Positions 3,767 through 20,000 of a DNA stretch of 20,000 bases are shown here, in pieces. The stretch lies in IMG/VR virus record IMGVR_UViG_3300027820_000030. One strand, given 5' to 3'. The position numbers and the translations under genes are program-made. Numbering within the stretch: position 1 is the first letter of the stretch; each line of letters starts with the position of its first letter. The notes under the pieces were generated by a model. That model was not told the DNA's origin, did no database searches, and was given only the letters and a program-made list of their open reading frames with translations. This DNA is from an uncultured virus (IMG/VR IMGVR_UViG_3300027820_000030). Its lineage: Duplodnaviria > Heunggongvirae > Uroviricota > Caudoviricetes.

Positions 3767-4009
3767 ATGCCATATGTAGCAACAAAGCGAAGCAGTAGAG
3801 AAGAGTTAACAAAGCTAATCAGATTGATACGCGACAAGTTTGAATTAAAGGTCGGCGACCAATTGCCCGACCAGCGCGGCGCATCTGAACTTGTGGGCGT
3901 GTCTAGAACAAAGTATCGCGAGGCAATAGTAAGCCTTACGTTTGCTGGATACATTGAATGCTTTCAGGGTAAGCCGTCTGTTGTTATTAAAGATATGAGG
4001 GATATATGA
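3767..4009 (+). CDS. Stand-alone GntR-type winged helix-turn-helix protein
   Basis: LKVGDQLPDQRGASELVGVSRTKYREAIVSLTFAGYI fits the GntR HTH pattern (GxxLP...GVSRxxxREAxxxL..G.I); AAGGTG RBS; no effector domain. Confidence 0.85.
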   Translation: MPYVATKRSSREELTKLIRLIRDKFELKVGDQLPDQRGASELVGVSRTKYREAIVSLTFAGYIECFQGKPSVVIKDMRDI

Positions 4010-4230
4010 AAAAATCCAAACTAGCACAATCCATCGACATCAAGCGCGAACACGATACTACTGTGGCGAACGTTCAAGACGCAATGAAGAAAATGATTCT
4101 GGCTATCGAAAACCAGGATGAGGAATTAATGGGCGAACTCGTAAAGCAGTACGGCGAACAAACTGTTAGAGCGCTGGGTAATAAGCTTGTCGAGCGCGGG
4201 CTATTGGGAAGGGCTGAGTATGGGCATTAA
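4006..4230 (+). CDS. Hypothetical protein (74 aa, helical)
   Basis: GAGGG RBS; ATGA overlap with the GntR gene. Confidence 0.75.
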   Translation: MKKSKLAQSIDIKREHDTTVANVQDAMKKMILAIENQDEELMGELVKQYGEQTVRALGNKLVERGLLGRAEYGH

Positions 4231-4528
4231 TCGTGGCACGGGCAGGACTACCAAGCAAATGATTAACGCCAAGAATGGCGCTGTATTCGCGTGGCCCAAC
4301 CATCACCTGCAATACCCTAGAATGCTGGCTGAACGCATAGGGAGAGCCGACCTCAAAATAGCGTCAGCCACGAGCGTTTTTGCACGAGACAATTGGCGTG
4401 GGAACATGGATATAGTCGTTGACCACGCTTGCTATTATTTATGCAACCCAGCGACCCTTGAATCAATAAACGAATACTTCAATTGGCGCAGACATAAGCT
4501 CAACAGCGAAGGCTTCAATAATGATTAA
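4220..4528 (+). CDS. Hypothetical protein with a degenerate P-loop-like N-terminus (102 aa)
   Basis: ATG at 4220; RGTGRTT resembles Walker A and IVVDHA resembles Walker B; overlaps both neighbours. Confidence 0.7.
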   Translation: MGINRGTGRTTKQMINAKNGAVFAWPNHHLQYPRMLAERIGRADLKIASATSVFARDNWRGNMDIVVDHACYYLCNPATLESINEYFNWRRHKLNSEGFNND

Positions 4529-4682
4529 CTGGCAACAACTAGCAACGCCGCCCGAAGTAATGGGCAACATGATAGCTGAGGCTATCGCGTGGGCGCAGAT
4601 GGATTTAGCTTACGACAGAATCAGCTACTCTGAGTTCCTGTTTGCGCTAGATGAAATTTTTGAATGTTTGGAGGAATGGTGA
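4521..4682 (+). CDS. Hypothetical acidic protein (53 aa; not in the ORF track)
   Basis: MINWQQLATPPEVMGNMIAEAIAW...FECLEEW*; overlaps the upstream stop and joins the next gene by TGATG. Confidence 0.65.
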   Translation: MINWQQLATPPEVMGNMIAEAIAWAQMDLAYDRISYSEFLFALDEIFECLEEW

Positions 4683-4909
4683 TGAATGAATTTATGCTTG
4701 AGTTGGTGTTTGGCTTGATTTGGTATTTATTGACAGGTTTTTGGTGTAGAAAGTTGGTAATGAATTACGGCACGAAAAAAGAGATTCCTATGGATTTTAT
4801 ACCATCCATCTGCTTTGTTCTGCTGTGGGCTTTGGTAGTGCCGCTAATTGTGCCAATAATGGCAGGGATTGACGATGCGTTTAAGAAGGTGAAGGAAGGG
4901 GTTTTGTGA
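4682..4909 (+). CDS. Small membrane protein with two predicted TM helices (75 aa)
   Basis: GGAGG RBS, TGATG coupling, two hydrophobic stretches. Confidence 0.7.
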   Translation: MNEFMLELVFGLIWYLLTGFWCRKLVMNYGTKKEIPMDFIPSICFVLLWALVVPLIVPIMAGIDDAFKKVKEGVL

Positions 4910-5004
4910 TGGATAAGGACCAAAAAGTAATCGCCTGCTTGATAGCGGTGAATGTAGGTTTTATTGTTTTTGTGCTGTTTACGGCTTTGTTGGGGTTAAA
5001 ATGA
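4909..5004 (+). CDS. Single-TM peptide (31 aa; not in the ORF track)
   Basis: MDKDQKVIACLIAVNVGFIVFVLFTALLGLK*; TGATG overlap upstream and ATGA overlap downstream. Confidence 0.6.
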   Translation: MDKDQKVIACLIAVNVGFIVFVLFTALLGLK

Positions 5005-5192
5005 AACCACACATAAAGAAAGTTAATGGGGTTTGGGAGTGTAGAGGTGAAATTTACACTGGACGCGCAGAAACCCCAAAGCTTGCGTTGTATAACCACT
5101 GCCTATGCATCCAAGTTTACCCAACGGCCATTGTCAGTGATATTGAAAAGGTTATTGACTGCTGGCATAAGCGGAATAACAGAAGGGGCTAA
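5001..5192 (+). CDS. Hypothetical protein (63 aa)
   Basis: ATGA coupling; last gene of the inverted cassette. Confidence 0.7.
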   Translation: MKPHIKKVNGVWECRGEIYTGRAETPKLALYNHCLCIQVYPTAIVSDIEKVIDCWHKRNNRRG

Positions 5193-11215: not shown

Positions 11216-11403
11216 CCATCCCACCCAGGCACCAGTTTAATTTCAAGCGGATAGCGTCCGGCTAAAATCTCCGCGCCGTTATCCAGTCCTTTGATGTACT
11301 GCTCAAAGGCATTAATCGCTTCGCCGGTTGTACGGGCATTAGGTACACGCATTCTCACCACCTCGCCGTTTACCTGGGTTTTGCATTGAAATACGAGGCT
11401 CAC
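11212..11403 (-). CDS. Hypothetical protein (63 aa, MSLVFQCKTQ...)
   Basis: GTGA overlap with the upstream gene favours the GTG at 11403 as start. Confidence 0.6.
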   Translation of the reverse strand: MSLVFQCKTQVNGEVVRMRVPNARTTGEAINAFEQYIKGLDNGAEILAGRYPLEIKLVPGWDG

Positions 11404-11570
11404 GACAACAACCCCCATCCAAGCATAAACAGCCACACGGCCCATCCAAAACACGCCGCAGCAACATTGCCTTTCGTCTGCTCGACATATTCACCCCATG
11501 CAAGTTCAAGCGATGCCCATGATATACCGGCGAATGTGACTACCATGTATGTGTAATAGAATTCGTTCAT
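11400..11570 (-). CDS. Small two-TM membrane protein (56 aa; not in the ORF track)
   Basis: MNEFYYTYMVVTFAGISWASLELAW...FGWAVWLFMLGWGLLS*; ATGA and GTGA overlaps. Confidence 0.65.
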   Translation of the reverse strand: MNEFYYTYMVVTFAGISWASLELAWGEYVEQTKGNVAAACFGWAVWLFMLGWGLLS

Positions 11571-11854
11571 ACCTCACCCCGTGCTTTTGCTAGTAGCATC
11601 TCGACCTCATCTGCCGCCCTGTGAGCATTTATATCTGTTAGTTGACCTGAAAGCTTTTCAAGCATCGCGTACATATCCGGTGCCGCTGCTATTAGGTGGG
11701 CGTTACAGTGAGACTCTTCGCTTATGTTGCATCCTGTATGGTCTGGGTCAAATCCCCACACTGTCCCAACAGTACCCGACATTGAATTAATTTCAATTAA
11801 GCCTCCTTCGTCATTTACCGTCCACTCGCCTTTCGTAAATTTAGCCTCACTCAT
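11567..11854 (-). CDS. Conserved phage hypothetical protein (95 aa)
   Basis: KFTKGEW...NAHLIAAAPDM pattern is common in phage early regions; ATGA coupling. Confidence 0.8.
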   Translation of the reverse strand: MSEAKFTKGEWTVNDEGGLIEINSMSGTVGTVWGFDPDHTGCNISEESHCNAHLIAAAPDMYAMLEKLSGQLTDINAHRAADEVEMLLAKARGEV

Positions 11855-12039
11855 TTCCTCGCCCTCCAACTCTTCTTTGCCTTATGTATCGCTGTAAATG
11901 CTTCGATATTGTCATTTACCACACGATACGCGTATTGCGGGTGACAGCCTACCGCATTGGATAGTGACAGCACCGTGCGATACTTACCTGTTTTCGCCTC
12001 TGCGATGATTGCAGGCGCTATTGTGCCGTATCGTTTCAT
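11851..12039 (-). CDS. Small HTH-like hypothetical protein
   Basis: TVLSLSNAVGCHPQYAYRVV resembles an HTH; GAGG RBS. Confidence 0.65.
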   Translation of the reverse strand: MKRYGTIAPAIIAEAKTGKYRTVLSLSNAVGCHPQYAYRVVNDNIEAFTAIHKAKKSWRARK

Positions 12040-12194
12040 TCCTCTTCCTCACAGTCCAGTATCTCGGCGTCGTACCAATAACTGTCAGCGTACTGTGCTT
12101 CCGCATGTGCCATTGCTTTGGCGTCATCCGCATTATCAGCCTCAACCCACAATTCATCTTCCATCATCATTTGTGTTTTTACTAAATATTTCAT
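12036..12194 (-). CDS. Small acidic hypothetical protein (52 aa; not in the ORF track)
   Basis: MKYLVKTQMMMEDELWVEADNADDAKAMA...EEEE*; ATGA overlaps at both ends. Confidence 0.7.
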   Translation of the reverse strand: MKYLVKTQMMMEDELWVEADNADDAKAMAHAEAQYADSYWYDAEILDCEEEE

Positions 12195-12355
12195 ATCCTA
12201 CCCCCATTCTCTGCGTATTTGCGCATAAGTTCTGGATGATTGAAAATCTCGAATGTCACTTTGCGTGTTTTCAACCCCGTTACCTGTGCGATTTTAATGT
12301 AACTACGTGCGCCGTCTTGTAGTGCGGCGCTCACTTTGCGGTAGTGTTTGTTCAC
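12191..12355 (-). CDS. Small basic HTH-like protein (54 aa; not in the ORF track)
   Basis: MNKHYRKVSAALQDGARSYIKIAQVTGLKTRKVTFEI...*; GTGA and ATGA overlaps. Confidence 0.6.
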   Translation of the reverse strand: MNKHYRKVSAALQDGARSYIKIAQVTGLKTRKVTFEIFNHPELMRKYAENGGRI

Positions 12356-12729
12356 AAAAAATGCTCCCAATCATACCCGGCGGGCATTTCTTCAGACGTA
12401 ACGATGTGATTATAAATCTCGTCTTTCGCCAGCTTGTCGAATAGCTCTTGATTCAACCGGCCTATATCAACGCCACCCATTGAGATTGCAATCAGCCTGC
12501 GCATTTCTTCAGACTCGCACATAGAGTTAATGACAGTATCTTCTGACACGATGTAAATGTTATTGCAGTATCTCCACTCCATCGATTTACCGTCTGCAAC
12601 AACCTCTGCCAGCTTCTCAGCGATATACCATAGATTATCATTGCTGATACTGTCATAGGTCAGTGGCGTTGATTCTGGCTCGCCTGGTAGCTGTCTGTCG
12701 TATGCGGTTTGATGTTGTTCTAGATTCAT
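12352..12729 (-). CDS. Acidic hypothetical protein (125 aa)
   Basis: GGAGGG RBS 6 nt before ATG 12729; first gene after a TATAAT box. Confidence 0.75.
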   Translation of the reverse strand: MNLEQHQTAYDRQLPGEPESTPLTYDSISNDNLWYIAEKLAEVVADGKSMEWRYCNNIYIVSEDTVINSMCESEEMRRLIAISMGGVDIGRLNQELFDKLAKDEIYNHIVTSEEMPAGYDWEHFL

Positions 12730-12754
12730 CTTCATCCCTCCATTAGTTTCACCC

Positions 12755-12793
12755 ATTATAACGGGTTAATTTTGTTTTGTGGTTTGACCAGTT
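12755..12793 (-). promoter_or_regulatory. Promoter (-10 TATAAT) with an upstream TGGT-N3-ACCA palindrome
   Basis: TATAAT at 12755-12760, no good -35, TGGTTTGACCA at 12780-12790. Confidence 0.45.
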
Positions 12794-13457
12794 ATTTCAC
12801 ATCGTAGTTGTCTTCCATGTACTTCCTAGCACTTACAGCAAGCATAAATGCCTCCCGATCTCCGTACTTGTTTTTTGAAAAGTTCTTTTCAACCTTTTTC
12901 CCACAAGGTTTTGTATATTTTGCGCAATACCTATTGCCGCAATCTGATACTCCGTTTACACCTGTTTTTGAGTCCCTCCTAACTCGCCTGTTTAGGGTTT
13001 GCTGTCTTTTTGTCGCCCATCGGCAGTTAGATGGCTCATAATTGCCGTCATTATCAATCCTGTCTAAAGATGTTCCATCTGGCCTTCTACCCATGTCTTT
13101 ATAAAAATTCTCAAAACTTTCTAACCATGCGTCACAGACTTTTATACCCCTAGAACCCCAATTTCTGTAACCTGGGTTGTTTTTATTGTGGCACCTTTGA
13201 ATCATTAAAGACCATATTCTATATTCTGTACTCTTTCTCATTCCATGCTTTTTGTTATTTCTACTTGCAACATCGGCACTGAAGCACCCGCATGAATTCG
13301 TTTTCCCAGAGCTTAAATTATATCCCTGAACATCCCTCACTGTCCCGCAATCGCATACGCATCTCCACATAGCCCTTCCCTTACTGCTATTTTCAACCCT
13401 CTCGATCACGGTCCATCTATTTATTTTCTTTCCGGTTAAATCTATTAATTTTCCCAT
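12792..13457 (-). CDS. HNH homing-endonuclease-like protein with an AP2-like C-terminus
   Basis: DLTGKK...WRCVCDCG...SCGC; SLDRIDNDGNYEPSNCRWAT; SKTGVNGV...AVSARK; AT-rich relative to the flanks. Confidence 0.88.
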   Translation of the reverse strand: MGKLIDLTGKKINRWTVIERVENSSKGRAMWRCVCDCGTVRDVQGYNLSSGKTNSCGCFSADVASRNNKKHGMRKSTEYRIWSLMIQRCHNKNNPGYRNWGSRGIKVCDAWLESFENFYKDMGRRPDGTSLDRIDNDGNYEPSNCRWATKRQQTLNRRVRRDSKTGVNGVSDCGNRYCAKYTKPCGKKVEKNFSKNKYGDREAFMLAVSARKYMEDNYDVK

Positions 13458-13615: not shown

Positions 13616-14278
13616 TCATTCAACCTCAAAATCATTGTTAACATGCTGCATAAAATCAGCGACTGTCCAATTCACAAACGCAGCGCGTTCCATCATTTCG
13701 ATAATCTCTTTATGTGTAATTGGTGGTTTGCGTTTCCAGATTACCTGACCTGCTCTAGTGACCTTCTCCGCGATGTAAGGAATCCCCATAAACTGCTCGC
13801 CGCCAACATTGTAATACATGCCGTTAAAGTAAACATAATAACGCTGACCATCGCAGTCTATGCAGTCACCCTCAATTAACTCAGGCATTTCACCTGTTGC
13901 AATTTCACCATTCCTCCTCTCTACCTCTGCTTCGAATTCTTCGCGGGTGCAGACGTACACGTAACAGTCCGGAACGTCCATTGATTCGCGATAGATAAAT
14001 CCAAGCTTCTCGTGCCAAAATAAATAATCAAAACCGTCACGCTTCCACTCTCGAAACAAATCAACCGCATCACTCACCGTCTTGCGTGTTGGATTTTTAT
14101 TTATGCCAACAACTTTATTGCCAGACAAAACGCAATCATGCGCATTAACCGTCTTGCGTGGTTTTAGTTGGGATTCTAGGTGTGTTATATACTCGTGCAA
14201 CTCTGATGCAGATTCGGCTTTCATGCCTACGTCAGCGTACACGCTTAGTGTTTCGATTAATTCAACTGGCCGCTTCAT
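13616..14278 (-). CDS. Hypothetical protein (220 aa)
   Basis: AAGGAG RBS; ATGA coupling. Confidence 0.8.
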   Translation of the reverse strand: MKRPVELIETLSVYADVGMKAESASELHEYITHLESQLKPRKTVNAHDCVLSGNKVVGINKNPTRKTVSDAVDLFREWKRDGFDYLFWHEKLGFIYRESMDVPDCYVYVCTREEFEAEVERRNGEIATGEMPELIEGDCIDCDGQRYYVYFNGMYYNVGGEQFMGIPYIAEKVTRAGQVIWKRKPPITHKEIIEMMERAAFVNWTVADFMQHVNNDFEVE

Positions 14279-14478
14279 TTCTCAAGCTCCTTTAAGAGTG
14301 CGTCTGCTTGCATTGTAGCCCAAATAGCCATATGGCTCGCCTCAACATCTGCTAAATTACTGTTGGCTAATAGGCCCTGCATAGCCAATCCCGCAAAATA
14401 CTCACGCTTGGTTAGGCCGGAATCACCAACCCCATTAGAGTCTGTTACTGGCATTGCCGGTTTTTCTGCGTTGTTCAT
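14275..14478 (-). CDS. Conserved phage hypothetical protein (67 aa)
   Basis: GLTKREYFAGLAMQGLLAN is a widespread phage motif; GGAGG RBS. Confidence 0.85.
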   Translation of the reverse strand: MNNAEKPAMPVTDSNGVGDSGLTKREYFAGLAMQGLLANSNLADVEASHMAIWATMQADALLKELEK

Positions 14479-14618
14479 TTCCCTTCCTCCAATTTCTCTA
14501 ACCGAACAGATAGAACCTGCTCGCCGTTTTTGTTTACGTATGGCCCGTCTAGCTCAAACGACTTTACCGGTCGCTTGGCTAGGTTTGGGTGTTTTTTGAT
14601 TAGTTGGGCGAGTGTCAT
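14475..14618 (-). CDS. Hypothetical protein (47 aa; not in the ORF track)
   Basis: MTLAQLIKKHPNLAKRPVKSFELDGPY...LEEGK*; ATGA overlaps at both ends. Confidence 0.65.
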   Translation of the reverse strand: MTLAQLIKKHPNLAKRPVKSFELDGPYVNKNGEQVLSVRLEKLEEGK

Positions 14619-14797
14619 TTTGACTCACCATAGATTTCAAAATAAGTATCTCCGGCAATAGTCTTGTTTATATCCAGGCATTTAACACCTGACTCGACTT
14701 CGCCGTCATTATCAAACGCAATCGCCATATGTAACTCAGCATCGCCATTCTCTTCGATAGCTCTGGCTAGTCTGTAAATCAATTCGCTTGCTTTCAT
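14615..14797 (-). CDS. Hypothetical protein (60 aa)
   Basis: GAGGAGG RBS; first gene after a promoter. Confidence 0.8.
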   Translation of the reverse strand: MKASELIYRLARAIEENGDAELHMAIAFDNDGEVESGVKCLDINKTIAGDTYFEIYGESK

Positions 14798-14822
14798 ATC
14801 TTCCTCCTCAGTTAATAATTAA

Positions 14823-14850
14823 ATTATACGTCACCGTTTTGTGGTGTCGA
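14823..14850 (-). promoter_or_regulatory. Sigma70-like promoter
   Basis: TCGACA-N16-TATAAT. Confidence 0.65.
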
Positions 14851-14946
14851 TGTTGCTCGTCGCTCATATATGTCATTCGTCGCAATCTCACACTCACACC
14901 CTGGAAACCGTTCCCGCAAACTCTGCTCGATGTCGTCGGCTGGTAG

Positions 14947-15621
14947 CTACTTTCTAGTTAAAACCCAATCATGCGTGTCTGACTGCGTAAAAAGCATATC
15001 ATTGAAGTCGCTAACGTCAGTCGGCACGCGTATCGTAACCTTGTCCGGTCCATCCATTCTGTTTATGTTTTTGTTTCCACATTCAAAGGCGGCTGCTAAT
15101 CCGGTGCCGTTTTTGTCATTGTCAGCAAATATAATCAGGTGTCTTACTGATCGCGGGGCTATGAACTGCTTCATATATCCAGCGTTTGCCGTTGACCATG
15201 TAGGGCAATCATAAATTTGTGTTGCGCTTAATGCCGTCTCCATACCTTCAGCTATTCCTATGGTTGCGTCACAATCAAACATTCTTATGGCTGCGCCTCT
15301 ACTTATGCTACTGCCGCACGCATCGCAAATTAGATTTTCTTGCCCGTTAGCAGTGAATATCTTTTTTGCGTTTATGCCTTGCGCCTTTCTACCGCCTTCA
15401 ATGTAAGTCCTGTGAAAATATGCAATCCGCATTCTGTCTGTTGTCATTGCGCTTGTCATACTTCTTAGCGGTCGTTTGGATTCTGGCTCAACTGTTGTCA
15501 GCTCATATCTAACGCCCTTGCGAGGCAGTATGTTTATTCTTCGGCTTAACAGGTACTCTTCTGCCTCAGTTCCTTTTAATTCGTCCATAAATTTAAACTC
15601 AAATACAAAATCATCGTTCAT
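14947..15621 (-). CDS. TOPRIM primase-like protein lacking the N-terminal Zn-binding domain
   Basis: GTEAEEYLLSRRI, YFHRTY, IGIAEGMETALS, IIFADND and DFND motifs; 11-nt overlap with the helicase gene. Confidence 0.88.
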   Translation of the reverse strand: MNDDFVFEFKFMDELKGTEAEEYLLSRRINILPRKGVRYELTTVEPESKRPLRSMTSAMTTDRMRIAYFHRTYIEGGRKAQGINAKKIFTANGQENLICDACGSSISRGAAIRMFDCDATIGIAEGMETALSATQIYDCPTWSTANAGYMKQFIAPRSVRHLIIFADNDKNGTGLAAAFECGNKNINRMDGPDKVTIRVPTDVSDFNDMLFTQSDTHDWVLTRK

Positions 15622-17137
15622 TTAGCATCTTCCTTAAATTGGCTATACTTTCTCTTGCTGTTTCTTTTGATTTCTGGTGCCTTTTGGCGCTCTTTATGTT
15701 TAGGTGCTTTATAAAATTGCTAACCTCTGCGCTCGGGTCAGTTGGAGAAAACTTGAAGCTCTTATCGGGCCATTCACCAAACTTTTCTTTGTATTTATGA
15801 CCTATCCATCCAAATTTCCAATTCTTGCCTTCGTTGTTTTTCATCTGCCAGTATCCGCATAGCTCACGCCACCAGCGTTTTTTATCTTCCTGCTGCTGCA
15901 TAGACACCGGAGCTATTTCGATGCTTTCGTCGACTTCTCCGTCCTCGCCGTATATCGGCTTAAATCCGCACTTTTCACAAACGTATTGACCGGCGGGCTT
16001 TATGTAGTGGCATGAAGGGCACTCCTTCTCTTTTTTCTCTGGCTTTTCCTTCTCCCTCGCCTGCTGCGCCTCTTTGTATGCGTCTCCAGTACTAAACAGC
16101 TCGTCGTATTCTATTTCGTGCGGCATGCCAAGCCTGTAGAATGTGCCTGAGTGATCTAGAATGATTGCTTTGTCTTTTCCTTTGGCCAACCTCAGAGCAC
16201 GTCCAATGCTTTGTATCCAGCGCATTTCTGACTTTGTTGGCTTGGCATAGATTACGCACCTTACATCAGCGTCGAAACCTTCGACCAACACATCAACGGA
16301 GCAGATTATTTTAACTATACCGTCGTCAAACGCCTTAAAAATTCTCTGCCTTTCTTCTTTTGGCGTGCTTCCTGTCATTACCTCGGCCTTTATGCCAGCC
16401 TTACGTAATTCAACTGTCAAAAAATTGGCGTGCAGTACATTGCAGCAAAATGCTATCGTTGGAAGTCCTTTGCCATACTTTAACCATGTGGTAACTATGT
16501 CACCGGCAATTTTTGCATCGCCCATTATTTCTGATATTTGCTCTTCGTTATAATCGCTGCCATAGGTGTTAGACCAGTTACTTTTTACACCTTTTAGATC
16601 TGGCTTTGTTGGCACGAAAAATTCATAGTTAGACAAGTAGCCTTGCTCCATTAAATCCTTTGTCGTTACCTGCTTGATGAAGTTTTGGTACACGTTACCC
16701 ATCCATGGCGCAAGCGGCGTTGCTGTTAAACCGATTACCTTAACGTCAGAGTTGTCTATGTATTCAATTAGTGGCTTTGACCTTATATGCGCCTCATCGA
16801 CTATAATAACGTCATAGTCGTCGTAACCCCTTCTGGCTAATGTCTGCACCGTGCCAACCTGGATATTTTTAGACGGGTCGGTCATTTCATGGTCAGCCTG
16901 TATAACGCCGCATGGTATCCCGAAATTCTCGAAGTGCTTTACCGTCTGGTTCACAAGTGCTGTACGCGGAACTGTAAAAAGCGCTCTCATGCCGTTACTA
17001 TGCAAGCCTTTCATTATCTCAGAGGCTATTATTGATTTCCCTGCCCCCGTTGGCGCTTGTATTAAGTGCGTGTTGTATTTTTTCCAGTGATGCCTAAGCT
17101 GATTAATTATTGTCTCTTGGTATTTCCTTAATTTCAT
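15611..17137 (-). CDS. Superfamily 2 DEAD/DEAH helicase with a C-terminal Zn ribbon
   Basis: APTGAGKS, IIVDEAH, GLTATP and QSIGRALR motifs; CPSC...CEKC. Confidence 0.95.
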   Translation of the reverse strand: MKLRKYQETIINQLRHHWKKYNTHLIQAPTGAGKSIIASEIMKGLHSNGMRALFTVPRTALVNQTVKHFENFGIPCGVIQADHEMTDPSKNIQVGTVQTLARRGYDDYDVIIVDEAHIRSKPLIEYIDNSDVKVIGLTATPLAPWMGNVYQNFIKQVTTKDLMEQGYLSNYEFFVPTKPDLKGVKSNWSNTYGSDYNEEQISEIMGDAKIAGDIVTTWLKYGKGLPTIAFCCNVLHANFLTVELRKAGIKAEVMTGSTPKEERQRIFKAFDDGIVKIICSVDVLVEGFDADVRCVIYAKPTKSEMRWIQSIGRALRLAKGKDKAIILDHSGTFYRLGMPHEIEYDELFSTGDAYKEAQQAREKEKPEKKEKECPSCHYIKPAGQYVCEKCGFKPIYGEDGEVDESIEIAPVSMQQQEDKKRWWRELCGYWQMKNNEGKNWKFGWIGHKYKEKFGEWPDKSFKFSPTDPSAEVSNFIKHLNIKSAKRHQKSKETARESIANLRKMLNER

Positions 17138-17364
17138 TTTTGCAACTCCAGAAGCTTGTCTATATGCTCTCGTAACCGCCTGTTTGCCTCACGCCTGTAC
17201 TTACCCTCATCAAATACAGGACACTCCCCCTGTGAGTAAATTTCGGTGTACTTGTCCATGATGCCTAAATTTCTGGCCTTGTATGGGTTCTTATCTAACT
17301 GCTCTTTTATCCAATCAATGTCTTTTGGGTTGCAGTTTATTGGGTGCCCGTATATTTCAGCCAT
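17134..17364 (-). CDS. Small replication-module protein preceding the helicase
   Basis: DIDWIKEQL...KYTEIY...RREANRRLRE; ATGA overlap with the helicase. Start uncertain (17364, 17376 or 17388). Confidence 0.7.
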   Translation of the reverse strand: MAEIYGHPINCNPKDIDWIKEQLDKNPYKARNLGIMDKYTEIYSQGECPVFDEGKYRREANRRLREHIDKLLELQK

Positions 17365-17545
17365 GACGTAAAACATTCCCGTTCGCATCCTCTATCTTGA
17401 CGAAAACCCTGCCGCAGGCCCTGCAAGTTTTTGACATCACGCTGATTGGTAGTTCAGGCACAAAACCTAGCCACTCAACCGCCTTTTTCTCCGTAGACAC
17501 TTCGTAATTACTCTCACCACATAAACCACCACACTTACAATACAT
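17357..17545 (-). CDS. Small Zn-ribbon protein (62 aa)
   Basis: CKCGG...CRACG. Confidence 0.7.
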   Translation of the reverse strand: MYCKCGGLCGESNYEVSTEKKAVEWLGFVPELPISVMSKTCRACGRVFVKIEDANGNVLRHG

Positions 17546-17549
17546 AACT

Positions 17550-18016
17550 CATTACCCTAGATTCTGAAAGAGGTTGTTAAGAACATACACTCACCTACGC
17601 AGTTAAGCGCAGGCAAGTGCAGCATTATTACCCTGAGTTCGTCAGTCGGCCAATAAAGCCAGAGCCTAAATAACATTATCTCTGGTCGGTACGTATGCCT
17701 GTTATAGCACCCTATCCACTGTACCGCGTTATTTATAGAGTTCGGCCAAGGTTTCCCAATGTAGCCTCTCGCAATAACCACTCATTCGTGTGTCGCTTTG
17801 ATAAGATTCCGCAGTAACGACTTTATCACTACGCGCTGCCGTTTCATTTCTGTCCGTCCACGCAGTGAACCAAATGTGCCAGCATGTGATAGGAAAAGAC
17901 TATCAGCAAAGTTGAAATATAAAGGAAGGTGCTATAAGATATGTTTAGCCGTGAAGGTTGCTTATGCATTTCCTGTTCATGTATTTCACCAAGGTGCTGG
18001 TAACACCGTTCGGTTA
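17550..18016 (-). ncRNA. Putative long structured leader or primer-like RNA of the replication operon
   Basis: No convincing ORF; has its own promoter; hairpins and a long-range helix whose G-U pairs form only on the minus strand. Confidence 0.5.
17912..17940 (+). promoter_or_regulatory. Sigma70-like antisense promoter
   Basis: TTGAAA-N17-TAAGAT. Confidence 0.7.
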
Positions 18017-18022
18017 AGCTTA

Positions 18023-18051
18023 AATATAACCCCGCTATGATTTCAGGTCAA
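18023..18051 (-). promoter_or_regulatory. Sigma70-like promoter for the leader/replication operon
   Basis: Minus strand TTGACC-N17-TATATT, embedded in the antisense RNA terminator. Confidence 0.7.
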
Positions 18052-18066
18052 GCGGGGTTTTGTTTT
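18028..18066 (+). terminator. Rho-independent terminator (+ strand, possibly bidirectional)
   Basis: AACCCCGCT-N14-AGCGGGGTT-TTGTTTT. Confidence 0.8.
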
Positions 18067-18481
18067 AGTAGTAACGCTCAACCTTCAACGGGTCGTCAAC
18101 AGGATGATATCTGCAAATTATGTATGCATGTCTACCGACTTCGTTTTGCTGGCTTCTTGTGCCGTCATCCCATAGCTGCCAACCTTCTTTTTCGTATTTT
18201 GCAAAATCGTTTGCAACATATCCTGCCACCACTTTTTTGTCGTAACTTTCCGGACTGACCATGCTCACTCTTTTAACTTCTTTCCTCATTGCTATGTTGG
18301 CTTTTTCGTAAATTTTGCATTCTGCTTTTACTCCTGAAAGTCCAGTTATAAGCAATGCAAGCTCTTTTCCGCTTAATCTTAATTCCATTATATTGTTGTG
18401 CGAATGAGCATCCTCTATCTCAATTGAGTAGTTGTCGTCACCCTTTCTGCCAAACGTTAAGCTTGCTGTTGTAATCTTCAT
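18065..18481 (-). CDS. Hypothetical protein (138 aa)
   Basis: GGAGGG RBS before ATG 18481 (MKITTASL...). Confidence 0.8.
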   Translation of the reverse strand: MKITTASLTFGRKGDDNYSIEIEDAHSHNNIMELRLSGKELALLITGLSGVKAECKIYEKANIAMRKEVKRVSMVSPESYDKKVVAGYVANDFAKYEKEGWQLWDDGTRSQQNEVGRHAYIICRYHPVDDPLKVERYY

Positions 18482-18482
18482 A

Positions 18483-18671
18483 TCACCCTCCAATCTTATC
18501 AATAAAAACCGTCGTTCTCGTTTCACGTATCCGGTATAGGCCGTAATACTGTTTAGGTTTGGATTTACCGCCGTATAGGGGTAAGCCGTTTGGGTTTGCT
18601 TTAAGGTGCTCGTCTAGAGCCATGATTGCACGCGGCGATAGTGGCGAGCAGTTGAATGTTACTTTTTTCAT
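18483..18671 (-). CDS. Hypothetical protein (62 aa)
   Basis: ATGA coupling to the DUF1364 gene. Confidence 0.7.
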   Translation of the reverse strand: MKKVTFNCSPLSPRAIMALDEHLKANPNGLPLYGGKSKPKQYYGLYRIRETRTTVFIDKIGG

Positions 18672-18943
18672 TTGACCACCAATAACCCTTTCTCATAAAG
18701 TTTCATCTGTGTCTCTTGAAGCGCTCGCAATTGGTCATAGCCGCTAACGTCGCCGCGGTCTAGCATTTGATGACAGTTGTAGCAGCCATAAACACCGAAC
18801 AGGTCGGGCGACTTTAAGCCGACGCCGCGAAAGTTGCTGTTAAGGTGGCAAAATACAACCGTTTCACCATCTTGGCATTGAACACTGACACGTAATGCGC
18901 ATGATTCACCGCGTGCGCTGTCGCGTATTTTTTTAGATTTCAC
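18668..18943 (-). CDS. DUF1364/YbcO-like Zn-binding nuclease-fold protein
   Basis: IRDSARGESC...C...ETVVFCH...GVGLKSPD...GCYNCH pattern; follows ninB. Confidence 0.85.
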   Translation of the reverse strand: MKSKKIRDSARGESCALRVSVQCQDGETVVFCHLNSNFRGVGLKSPDLFGVYGCYNCHQMLDRGDVSGYDQLRALQETQMKLYEKGLLVVK

Positions 18944-19383
18944 TCTCCATCCCTCATTAAAGCCTGGATATATAAATCATCAGGGTGTGAAAACTGACAT
19001 CCAAGCGATTCAAGCGCCCATACTTCATAGCGCGTTAAAAATTCAGCGAACTCCTTAACCTTTAGCTTTTTGGTTTCGGTTCGCTTAACCTCTGGCTCAC
19101 CTAAAACTGTCACGACACGTTTAGGTAAAAGCCGATTTACAACATAGTCGTGAATATCCTCAGCCGCGTAAGTTTCGCCGCGAGTCTCTTCGATATGCTT
19201 TGCTAATTCAGCGTGAAAGACCCCCCAAAGGAGGCGATTTTGCTTGCTGCTTCGAGTTTCCTCGTCAGGCTTGATAGTGACTATAATGTCTTTTTTGTGC
19301 GCATAAGCCTCGCGCAATGCAGATTTTACCATTTCGGGCCAGTGTGCAGCTTGCGAGAATGGCAGGCGCTTGGTTAGTTTCAT
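18940..19383 (-). CDS. ninB: NinB/YbcN-family recombination protein
   Basis: RSSKQNRLLW and TKKLKVKEFAEFL motifs; nin-region context. Confidence 0.8.
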   Translation of the reverse strand: MKLTKRLPFSQAAHWPEMVKSALREAYAHKKDIIVTIKPDEETRSSKQNRLLWGVFHAELAKHIEETRGETYAAEDIHDYVVNRLLPKRVVTVLGEPEVKRTETKKLKVKEFAEFLTRYEVWALESLGCQFSHPDDLYIQALMRDGE

Positions 19384-19844
19384 TCTCCTGCCCTTATAAA
19401 TTCTCTCGCGCAGTCCAGCAGAGAATTGTTCAACTCTGTGACATCCTCCTGAAGAAAGTAAAGTTTTGGCGGTATATGGCCGGCGCCTTTTGTTCTGTGC
19501 GCAACCCTACTATTAAGGGCCTCCTTAATGATTGACACAAGCCGAGAAACTGCTTCAGCCTCATCCATGTAAATACTACTGGATGGTAAAGATTTGTTAT
19601 ATATTGGATTGTAATGCACAATCTCTCTGGCTTCGACATCATTGAGCATATCAATGTCGCAATCGAAAAATTCTATTCCGTCAAACTCCTTGTCGTTTCT
19701 GTAGAAGTGCTGAGCAATTCGGCTTTTTATGTTTTTTGTCTGTCCGACGTAAACAACTTTGCTTCCTTGCTTTAAATGATAAATCCCAACTCCATCTGGG
19801 TTTACGCCTAGTTTTTCCATGAAGTCATCAAGCATCGTTCTCAT
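19380..19844 (-). CDS. GIY-YIG nuclease domain protein
   Basis: GIYHL...VVYVGQTKNIKSRIAQH...E...I...NPIYN. Confidence 0.85.
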   Translation of the reverse strand: MRTMLDDFMEKLGVNPDGVGIYHLKQGSKVVYVGQTKNIKSRIAQHFYRNDKEFDGIEFFDCDIDMLNDVEAREIVHYNPIYNKSLPSSSIYMDEAEAVSRLVSIIKEALNSRVAHRTKGAGHIPPKLYFLQEDVTELNNSLLDCAREFIRAGE

Positions 19845-19994
19845 TTCTTACACTCCTTAGCATGCTGTTTCATTACCAGCTCAGCGACAATGCCTGACTT
19901 AGTGTTTATCAATGCACACTCATCTGAGCGTTTCTTTTTTAGCTCATCAAGCAGCCTGTCGATATTCGCGTTAACTGATATTTTTATTGCTCAT
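19841..19994 (-). pseudogene. Frameshifted ribbon-helix-helix-like regulator (or a homopolymer sequencing error)
   Basis: The frame from ATG 19994 stops after 7 codons. Removing one A from the A5 run gives MSNKISVNANIDRLLDELKKKRS...IVAELVMKQHAKECKK*, whose stop overlaps the GIY-YIG start. Confidence 0.6.
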
Positions 19995-20000
19995 TTTCTT

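Follow-up and report, generated by a model that had tools for sequence, protein, structure and literature searches.

A candidate RNA-opened replication origin with a predicted antisense switch ahead of a phage helicase-primase module

We propose that the ORF-poor gap ahead of the helicase and primase genes of this uncultured phage is an R-loop-primed replication origin like those of ColE1 and the MRB plasmids, with a variable guide and turned down by a predicted antisense RNA. Weighing all evidence, we put the chance that this is correct at about even. As far as can be judged from the sequence, the working part is likely a pseudoknotted domain followed by a direct repeat (copy 1 - hairpin - copy 2) and not the antisense overlap: domain and repeat are common to many phages in which the antisense unit is absent (none of the 29 other members of the core-RNA family carries it). 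An earlier note on this DNA had suggested RNA-controlled replication with a geometry as in ColE1. This is still the best reading, but its centre probably lies in the core and the repeat. The arrangement is conserved, and no conserved ORF was found. Regarding the choice between a primer RNA and a rep attenuator, which had been left undecided, the evidence leans to a (predicted) primer or R-loop. All features are collected in Table 1.

Table 1. Features of the gap and the adjoining genes (coordinates refer to the window; +, given strand; -, complementary strand)
Feature	Position	Strand	Basis or remark
Core domain related to Rfam Betaproteobacteria-1	17763..17870	-	RF02932 29 bits; R1 40.6 bits, E 4.3e-9
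Core P1	17867-17859/17835-17827	-	predicted pairing
Core P2	17821-17816/17797-17792	-	predicted pairing
Core loop-loop pair	17839-17836/17814-17811	-	predicted pairing
Core second pseudoknot, predicted	17807-17800/17716-17709	-	partner search
Long non-coding RNA of ~470 nt, predicted (leader or primer precursor)	17546..18016	-	no conserved ORF; homology to L082
Arm of 10-bp alternative helix, partner 17702-17711	17928..17937	-	inverted pair I3; predicted when 5' end blocked
Predicted sigma70 promoter of long RNA, TTGACC-17-TATATT, -35 inside antisense terminator hairpin	18023..18051	-	sequence; same overlap in L082, L083, L187
Predicted sigma70 promoter of antisense RNA, TTGAAA-17-TAAGAT	17912..17940	+	sequence; equivalents in L083, L187
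Intrinsic-terminator-like hairpin with T tail, ends antisense RNA	18019..18068	+	arms 18019-18036 / 18051-18068; spans - promoter
Predicted ~120-nt antisense RNA	17947..18066	+	complementary to first ~70 nt of long RNA (17947-18016)
Copy 1 of direct repeat (predicted guide)	17625..17634	-	repeat family D9
Strong hairpin between copies, weak U tail	17586..17621	-	fold; conserved in L082
Copy 2 of direct repeat (predicted target: its template strand)	17549..17558	-	repeat family D9
62-aa small protein, phrog_4789 (unknown function)	17357..17545	-	PHROG match
phrog_852 small protein, usual companion of SF2 helicase phrog_16	17134..17388	-	PHROG match
SF2 (DEAD/ResIII) helicase, phrog_16, Eru1A-type	15611..17137	-	PHROG/Pfam matches
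TOPRIM primase, phrog_510, Eru1B-type	14947..15621	-	PHROG/Pfam matches

The stretch analysed (20,000 nucleotides, hereafter the window) forms the final 20 kb of the 75-kb virus record IMGVR_UViG_3300027820_000030. Within this record bases 1-191 recur at 39,909-40,099, and head as well as replication genes come in two sets; it looks like two joined phage genomes, the first with a terminal repeat. Both genomes have several blocks in common (85-93% identical), including window positions 11400-12800. The head, portal and terminase genes of the window phage are P22-like, and between the portal and scaffold genes lies a run of small ORFs (3767-5192, + strand), mostly without family matches. Past the gap the minus strand carries phrog_4789, phrog_852, the SF2 helicase phrog_16 and the TOPRIM primase phrog_510, in that order. 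The phrog_4789 gene is absent from the equivalent position in two related phages (L082 and L187, see below). For the phrog_852 protein, which may resemble the N-terminus of P2 gpA, the ESM Atlas gave no usable match. The NinB (eru1C-like) gene of the window phage is located upstream instead of downstream. A tyrosine integrase (phrog_1) and a CI-type repressor (phrog_4) were looked for in the record and in the overlapping contig G001, both of which are possibly incomplete, and neither turned up; G001 runs on into a divergent operon with an ERF gene.

The lack of O/P-type initiators had been presented as a departure from what a P22-like phage normally uses. The absence of O/P has a precedent: the replication unit Eru1 of O/P-less Stx phages consists of an SF2 helicase and a TOPRIM protein (PMC8044961), so that this absence is not in itself new. 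Shared with Eru1 are the SF2 DEAD/DEAH helicase (49% identity to that of TL-2011c) followed by TOPRIM, the lack of O/P and a phrog_852-like gene upstream. In contrast, cI/cro and a short gap characterise TL-2011c and most enterobacterial loci, which do not match our RNA model. The part of PMC8044961 covered here describes no origin for Eru1, and the literature covered here does not explain how the origin is opened in O/P-less phages with an SF2 helicase and TOPRIM.

The window was searched against Rfam. The family Betaproteobacteria-1 (RF02932) matches at 17780-17868 with 29 bits (E 0.046), which is under its gathering cut-off of 49.4 bits; as a single model on the window's own record it reaches an E-value of 4.1e-5. 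Besides this family and a weak YenS match, nothing in Rfam was found in the window at E<=1. A pattern based on the RF02932 consensus returned 104 viral loci, and 52 distinct ones passed a filter for the P1 stem. Of 20 loci tested, 6 reach the Rfam cut-off. From 39 stem-passing loci, the window not among them, we built a model (R1, whose E-values are rough); one locus, L300, was excluded as a suspected chance match, and the repeat was later seen there as well. Among 13 sources R1 matches three, the window at an E-value of 4.3e-9 and two others only weakly (L082, E 0.04; L061, E 0.33). Each of these matches lies in the gap ahead of phrog_852. No core match was obtained for L083 and L187, though both have the antisense unit.

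Judged by its sequence, the window core is a divergent, expanded relative of Betaproteobacteria-1 and not a formal member. In common are P1 with its GGNYGG...ACGGCAG loop, P2 with its CUG-UGG loop and the loop-loop pairing, whereas the window has an expansion of ~90 nt and a 5' antisense switch; in addition, the Rfam model ends before the repeat unit. The pseudoknot of loop 2 was found in all 39 R1 loci as 4-7 Watson-Crick pairs of freely varying sequence. Across these loci the pseudoknot covaries strongly and the loop bases are highly conserved, an invariance that is partly imposed by the search pattern. Covariation in P1 was not counted as independent support, because members had been filtered for this stem. 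Where loop 2 has U for G at one position, loop 1 has U for C (L405, L406, L451, L456, L160 and L082), and this co-change is likely, from the aligned sequences, to reflect the exchange of a tertiary C-G for a U.U contact in the core. We discarded a long-range pairing of the first loop (17859-17854) with 17689-17684, since the bases belong to a local covarying helix, and a family-wide search for a partner of the first loop gave 24 observed against 18.8 expected, with other bins equally high.

R1 did not match in 305 bacterial genomes (with no more than 26 candidates scored per genome in the two large searches), nor did it match the long leader that phage T5 has ahead of its T5.108 origin-binding gene (L398:6977-7546). 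By blastn, the family members L343 (against phages and plasmids) and L303 (against phages) had no match and L451 matched Acidovorax phage AP1. The gap itself likewise gave no blastn match in phages, nor among 72,556 plasmids, and sequence patterns derived from the window found only the same phage or chance matches (the gap range of one pattern being too narrow for the window itself). In L061 the weak core match lies near the middle of a 750-bp gap (1257-2009), with ~390 more non-coding bases upstream and no antisense arrangement.

The family motif continues beyond the Rfam model: GGCU is followed by CC and 9-14 variable nucleotides (copy 1), at least one hairpin, CA, and again CC with copy 2, at a spacing of 49-96 nt between the copies. 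This anchored repeat (GGCU|CC-R ... CA|CC-R) is present in 37 of the 50 stem-passing loci with enough flank, against 6 of 27 others. L086, a locus chosen by helicase homology alone, likewise has the RNA, and its repeat of 13 nt contains two G>A changes. Of the 42 mismatches within 31 distinct repeats, 35 have G in copy 1 where copy 2 has A, and if the fixed third position is left out, 14 G>A stand against 0 A>G (p 1e-4). On the same strand no complement of copy 1 was found, the longest pairing run of the 31 repeats being 6.6 against 6.4 after shuffling. One-directional mismatches together with the lack of an internal partner indicate that copy 1 likely pairs with the opposite strand; and because pairing tolerates a G facing T, as a wobble, but not an A facing C, the most simple partner would be the template strand at copy 2. 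The 50 nt past copy 2 have an AT content of 0.60 against 0.46 for the locus (higher in 30 of 31), although intergenic DNA is AT-rich anyway. In one member (L394) copy 2 is followed by 9-bp units in a short tandem array.

In the window the repeat is short: 8 nt at a spacing of 76, matched by 106 of 200 shuffles and thus not significant alone. The GGCUCC/CACC anchors are missing, as other bases precede both copies, and the best extension contains a reverse (A>G) mismatch. The first anchor is also absent in AP1, L405 and L406. Among 14 anchor-less or indel-shifted members checked, the repeat of L334 is clearly significant and that of L344 borderline, the others not. In L082 a 14-nt repeat with two G>A surrounds the last hairpin (no repeat as long in 200 shuffles); the repeats of L083 (11 nt, 10 of 200 shuffles) and L187 (10 nt, 49 of 200) are marginal. 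In contigs X5 and X10 a change at 17550 lengthens the identity of the two copies to 10 nt. In X5, position 6 is altered in both copies (17629 and 17553), a concerted change seen in one contig at a depth of 4.4; X10 is unaltered at both. Three other explanations of the repeat were rejected. A plain target-site duplication and a Shine-Dalgarno mimic fail on the one-directional mismatches, the freely varying repeats and the distance of often ~90 nt that separates copy 2 from the following start codon. For a DGR-type template/variable repeat the copies are too short; no reverse transcriptase family was found among the neighbours scanned.

The RNA motif is widespread among phages and often lies next to helicase or primase genes. 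In 18 of 39 stem-passing loci of at least 3 kb a replication-type gene (helicase, primase, primase-helicase, DnaB, initiator fragment, loader or RNase H in the fetched flank) was recognised (with family names from PHROG), in a count for which several query proteins were drawn from the member loci themselves. The corresponding numbers are 2 of 23 for loci that failed the stem filter, both of them repeat-bearing, and 0 of 17 for chance-match loci (PHROG scan of 69 of 109 listed ORFs). A second pattern yielded 120 loci, five of which pass the filter, and all four clear members follow SF2 and TOPRIM genes. In L305 and L327 the RNA follows a fragment of an O-like initiator. In L308 the ORF after the RNA matches no more than the C-terminal part of such an initiator (phrog_678 positions 219-296 of 346) and is followed by a loader-like gene. 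In the cultured Acidovorax phage AP1 the RNA lies after helicase and primase, and another gene of this phage carries the annotation plasmid replication/partition related. Conversely, the helicase module does not require the RNA, as R1 matches only 2 of 100 further loci picked by helicase. One RepL-bearing locus (L084) has no RNA match; ahead of its RepL-type gene, in a related helicase module, are three identical 18-bp iteron-like repeats (1020-1110). In L346 (at +276) the RNA stands after a cro-like gene and is directly followed by an RNase H gene. In L081 (2904-2974) an int-alpA RNA over the Rfam cut-off separates phrog_852 from the helicase and lies downstream of a DUF1376 gene.

For the remaining 21 of 39 members no replication gene was recognised in the vicinity, and some precede terminase or recombination genes. 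This brings in the possibility that the RNA is a cis-acting elongation element (a put-like antiterminator, a programmed pause or a guide-assisted terminator), in which pairing of copy 1 with the template would change read-through and the antisense RNA would act as a gate. The put RNAs of HK022 provide a precedent for elongation control. Members before terminase/HNH or recombination genes and after cro would fit such a role, as would the 6 of 29 other members that begin right behind a sigma70-like promoter (some of them divergent from a CI-like gene), and a hairpin ending exactly at a tract of ~10 nt has the geometry of a terminator. Nonetheless, at least 10 members are positioned directly past the stop codon of the primase gene, where the replication genes have already been transcribed, and the link to initiator fragments and RNase H would be left unexplained; Rfam offered no family for it either, with RF02932 and the weak YenS match as the sole results. 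We consider elongation control unlikely, although less so than the two rivals discussed below.

With respect to the antisense unit, both convergent sigma70-like promoters described in the earlier note were located at the positions given, and the minus promoter indeed sits inside a plus-strand hairpin with T tail. The terminator scanner missed this hairpin because the loop is too long; it was scored with a custom script. Promoter-like sites on their own occur at chance level (8 in 14000-20000 against 11.0 +/- 2.8 in shuffles), and it is the conservation in relatives that lifts the arrangement above chance. These relatives are L082 and L083 (from metagenomes, with helicases that are 65-66% identical) and the more distant L187. 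Each has an ORF-poor gap of ~570-650 bp before phrog_852 and helicase, and each gap begins with an opposite-strand terminator enclosing the sense -35. The convergent geometry is shared fully by L083 and L187 and partly by L082, in which a weaker counterpart of the antisense promoter was placed by alignment. Under a strict rule (a terminator over one promoter and a convergent promoter 55-110 nt away) the window, L083 and L187 score, whereas none of 150 shuffles made of each of these gaps does, and neither do L082, L061, three RepL-type gaps or the T5 leader. The conservation of promoters and structure on which the earlier proposal depended is thus present. The short RNA, described there as fully complementary to the first ~70 nt of the long one, overlaps it with only ~70 of its own ~120 nt; the rest covers the promoter and not the RNA that starts from it.

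The predicted 120-nt antisense RNA folds with z = -2.7, and its counterparts in the relatives (107-127 nt) with z between -3.2 and -6.9. L083 and the window have identical blocks of 13 nt and 7 nt at the sense 5' end, even though single-sequence nhmmer gave no link. Public contigs show the same unit in changing surroundings. Contig X9 retains 17879-18066 (3 differences in 188 nt), with the adjacent 153-aa gene swapped and phrog_852 differing at 15 of 256 positions. The related contig X18 retains the hairpin with a -10 that is a perfect TATAAT, and X4 and X8 retain it before a different sequence with its own promoter-like site. The terminator/promoter hairpin (window 18029-18066) is a shared cassette in these contigs, and upstream genes and downstream leaders vary around it. 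Seen against the whole family, the marine clade has the antisense switch as an addition.

Over its 3' ~300 nt the leader is homologous to L082 (E 1e-18), and these two sequences, the only ones compared, differ at both partners in 14 of 64 predicted pairs. The claim that the leader holds no credible ORF stands up: ORFs of at least 50 codons in the gap (17557-17781 on - and 17798-18040 on +) match no PHROG or Pfam family, the former, with 74 codons, is broken in L082 by a TGA and frameshifting insertions, and a conserved ORF filling the gap was not seen. An SD-led ORF common to the leaders was not found, and neither was a conserved leader peptide. If the first 40-70 nt are blocked in silico, in a fold prediction made without pseudoknots, the probability of the alternative 10-bp helix rises from 0.03 to 0.95 and that of P1 drops from 0.97 to 0.26. 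This refolding was not reproduced in L082. The last leader hairpin is predicted with a probability of ~1.0 with or without the block.

These observations bear on the reading that the leader is an antisense-controlled attenuator or translational switch of the pT181/IncFII type for the phrog_852-helicase-primase operon, with no role at the DNA. It might be argued from the conservation of the antisense unit before the operon in the window, L083 and L187, also where the middle of the leader differs, and from a hairpin with a weak U tail ahead of the first gene; since no CI-type repressor was found in the record, another brake is plausible as well. Hallmarks of IncFII CopA/CopT or of the pT181 attenuator were not found, with no small ORF in common and a terminal hairpin that, as predicted, is indifferent to the 5' block. 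Apart from that, the antisense target is ~400 nt away from the first start codon, no leader peptide is conserved, the hairpin-plus-repeat is also seen behind primase genes where the phage has no antisense unit, and the G/A bias suggests a partner on the opposite strand. Taken together this makes the attenuator improbable. A type I toxin-antitoxin pair was considered too, but the long RNA shows no conserved small toxic ORF, the 74-aa frame being broken in L082.

There is only a slim chance that the core acts as a catalytic RNA or as a structure in single-stranded DNA (a priming or helicase-loading signal) with the repeat marking a site of cleavage, ligation or strand exchange: the conserved loop bases, the covarying pseudoknot and the occurrence of GAA and GNAA loops (which are stable in DNA too) would suit it, but the 54 G-U/U-G cells of P1 in the alignment (including a conserved U-G adjoining the loop) and the promoters just before P1 in several members fit RNA, no ribozyme family matched in the Rfam scan, and the loop invariance is in part a product of the search pattern.

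Returning to the R-loop-primed origin, we envisage the following course of events. Both predicted RNAs would be made, the folded one of ~470 nt and the antisense one of ~120 nt. The folded core would keep copy 1 available during the passage of RNA polymerase over copy 2, and the hairpin abutting copy 2 would let copy 1 seize the template strand, G.T wobble being tolerated. Copy 1 paired with the template at copy 2 would form an R-loop that acts as the replication origin, where the displaced strand and the AT-rich DNA past copy 2 might load the SF2 helicase and the TOPRIM primase; alternatively, the RNA itself could prime after cleavage by RNase H. By binding the long RNA over its first ~70 nt, the antisense RNA would turn replication down, and this binding is predicted to shift the fold to the helix 17928-17937/17702-17711.

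No match to ColE1 RNA I or the ColE1 origin was found: Rfam, which includes an RNAI family, gave none in the window at E<=1, and the gap had no blastn match among the 72,556 plasmids. The resemblance to ColE1 would be one of design. In ColE1, according to the part of PMC4412123 covered here, an rG stretch of RNA II pairs with a dC stretch of the template into a persistent hybrid. Cleavage of this hybrid by RNase H provides the primer, or else the hybrid displaces a strand on which helicase and primase are loaded. Common to both systems are a long structured RNA and a short antisense RNA at its 5' end (both predicted in our case) and an internal RNA stretch identical to DNA further downstream. 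Different are the match itself (variable, 9-14 nt, instead of a G run), the antisense terminator over the promoter and the helicase and primase that the phage brings along.

The MRB plasmids offer a second comparison. As far as PMC3035462 is covered here, ColE1 and MRB are the only RNA-initiated plasmid families it names, and MRB plasmids have an RNA II of ~465 nt and a two-stem RNA I of 68 nt with a conserved 110-bp RNA I core. Like the window with its predicted RNAs, the MRB plasmid pB1067 is marine and has an ORF-free region of ~500 bp, an RNA II of ~465 nt and a small antisense RNA ending at a terminator near the RNA II 5' end. Its 68-nt RNA I lies wholly inside RNA II, whereas the antisense RNA predicted here has ~120 nt and three stems and belongs to a phage with replication genes downstream. 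The gap has no blastn match in the plasmid collection, which lacks pB1067. A third group, the plasmid motifs ARRPOF, PAGEV and GEBRO, are structured non-coding elements of 220-350 nt with a proposed role in Rep-less replication (PMC5737381); none of them matched the window at E<=1, and the part of that paper covered here makes no mention of a repeat or guide.

It is possible, though on balance doubtful, that the scheme applies far more widely: the phage RNAs would be self-targeting, RNA-only origin openers, each a conserved pseudoknotted scaffold with a variable 9-14-nt guide that invades matching DNA during transcription, taking the place of the origin-binding half of initiators and partnering unrelated helicases and primases. 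The marine clade would have added a ColE1-style antisense RNA as control of copy number or of lysis/latency in place of a repressor. In the open literature we found nothing on the function, repeat or phage context of Betaproteobacteria-1, and part of the phage context may already be known. If the proposal is true, an orphan Rfam motif gains a function and an extension by a guide/target repeat, the R-loop anchor of ColE1 gains a version with variable sequence, and plasmid-style antisense control would be operating inside a phage. A cultured carrier of the RNA exists in Acidovorax phage AP1.
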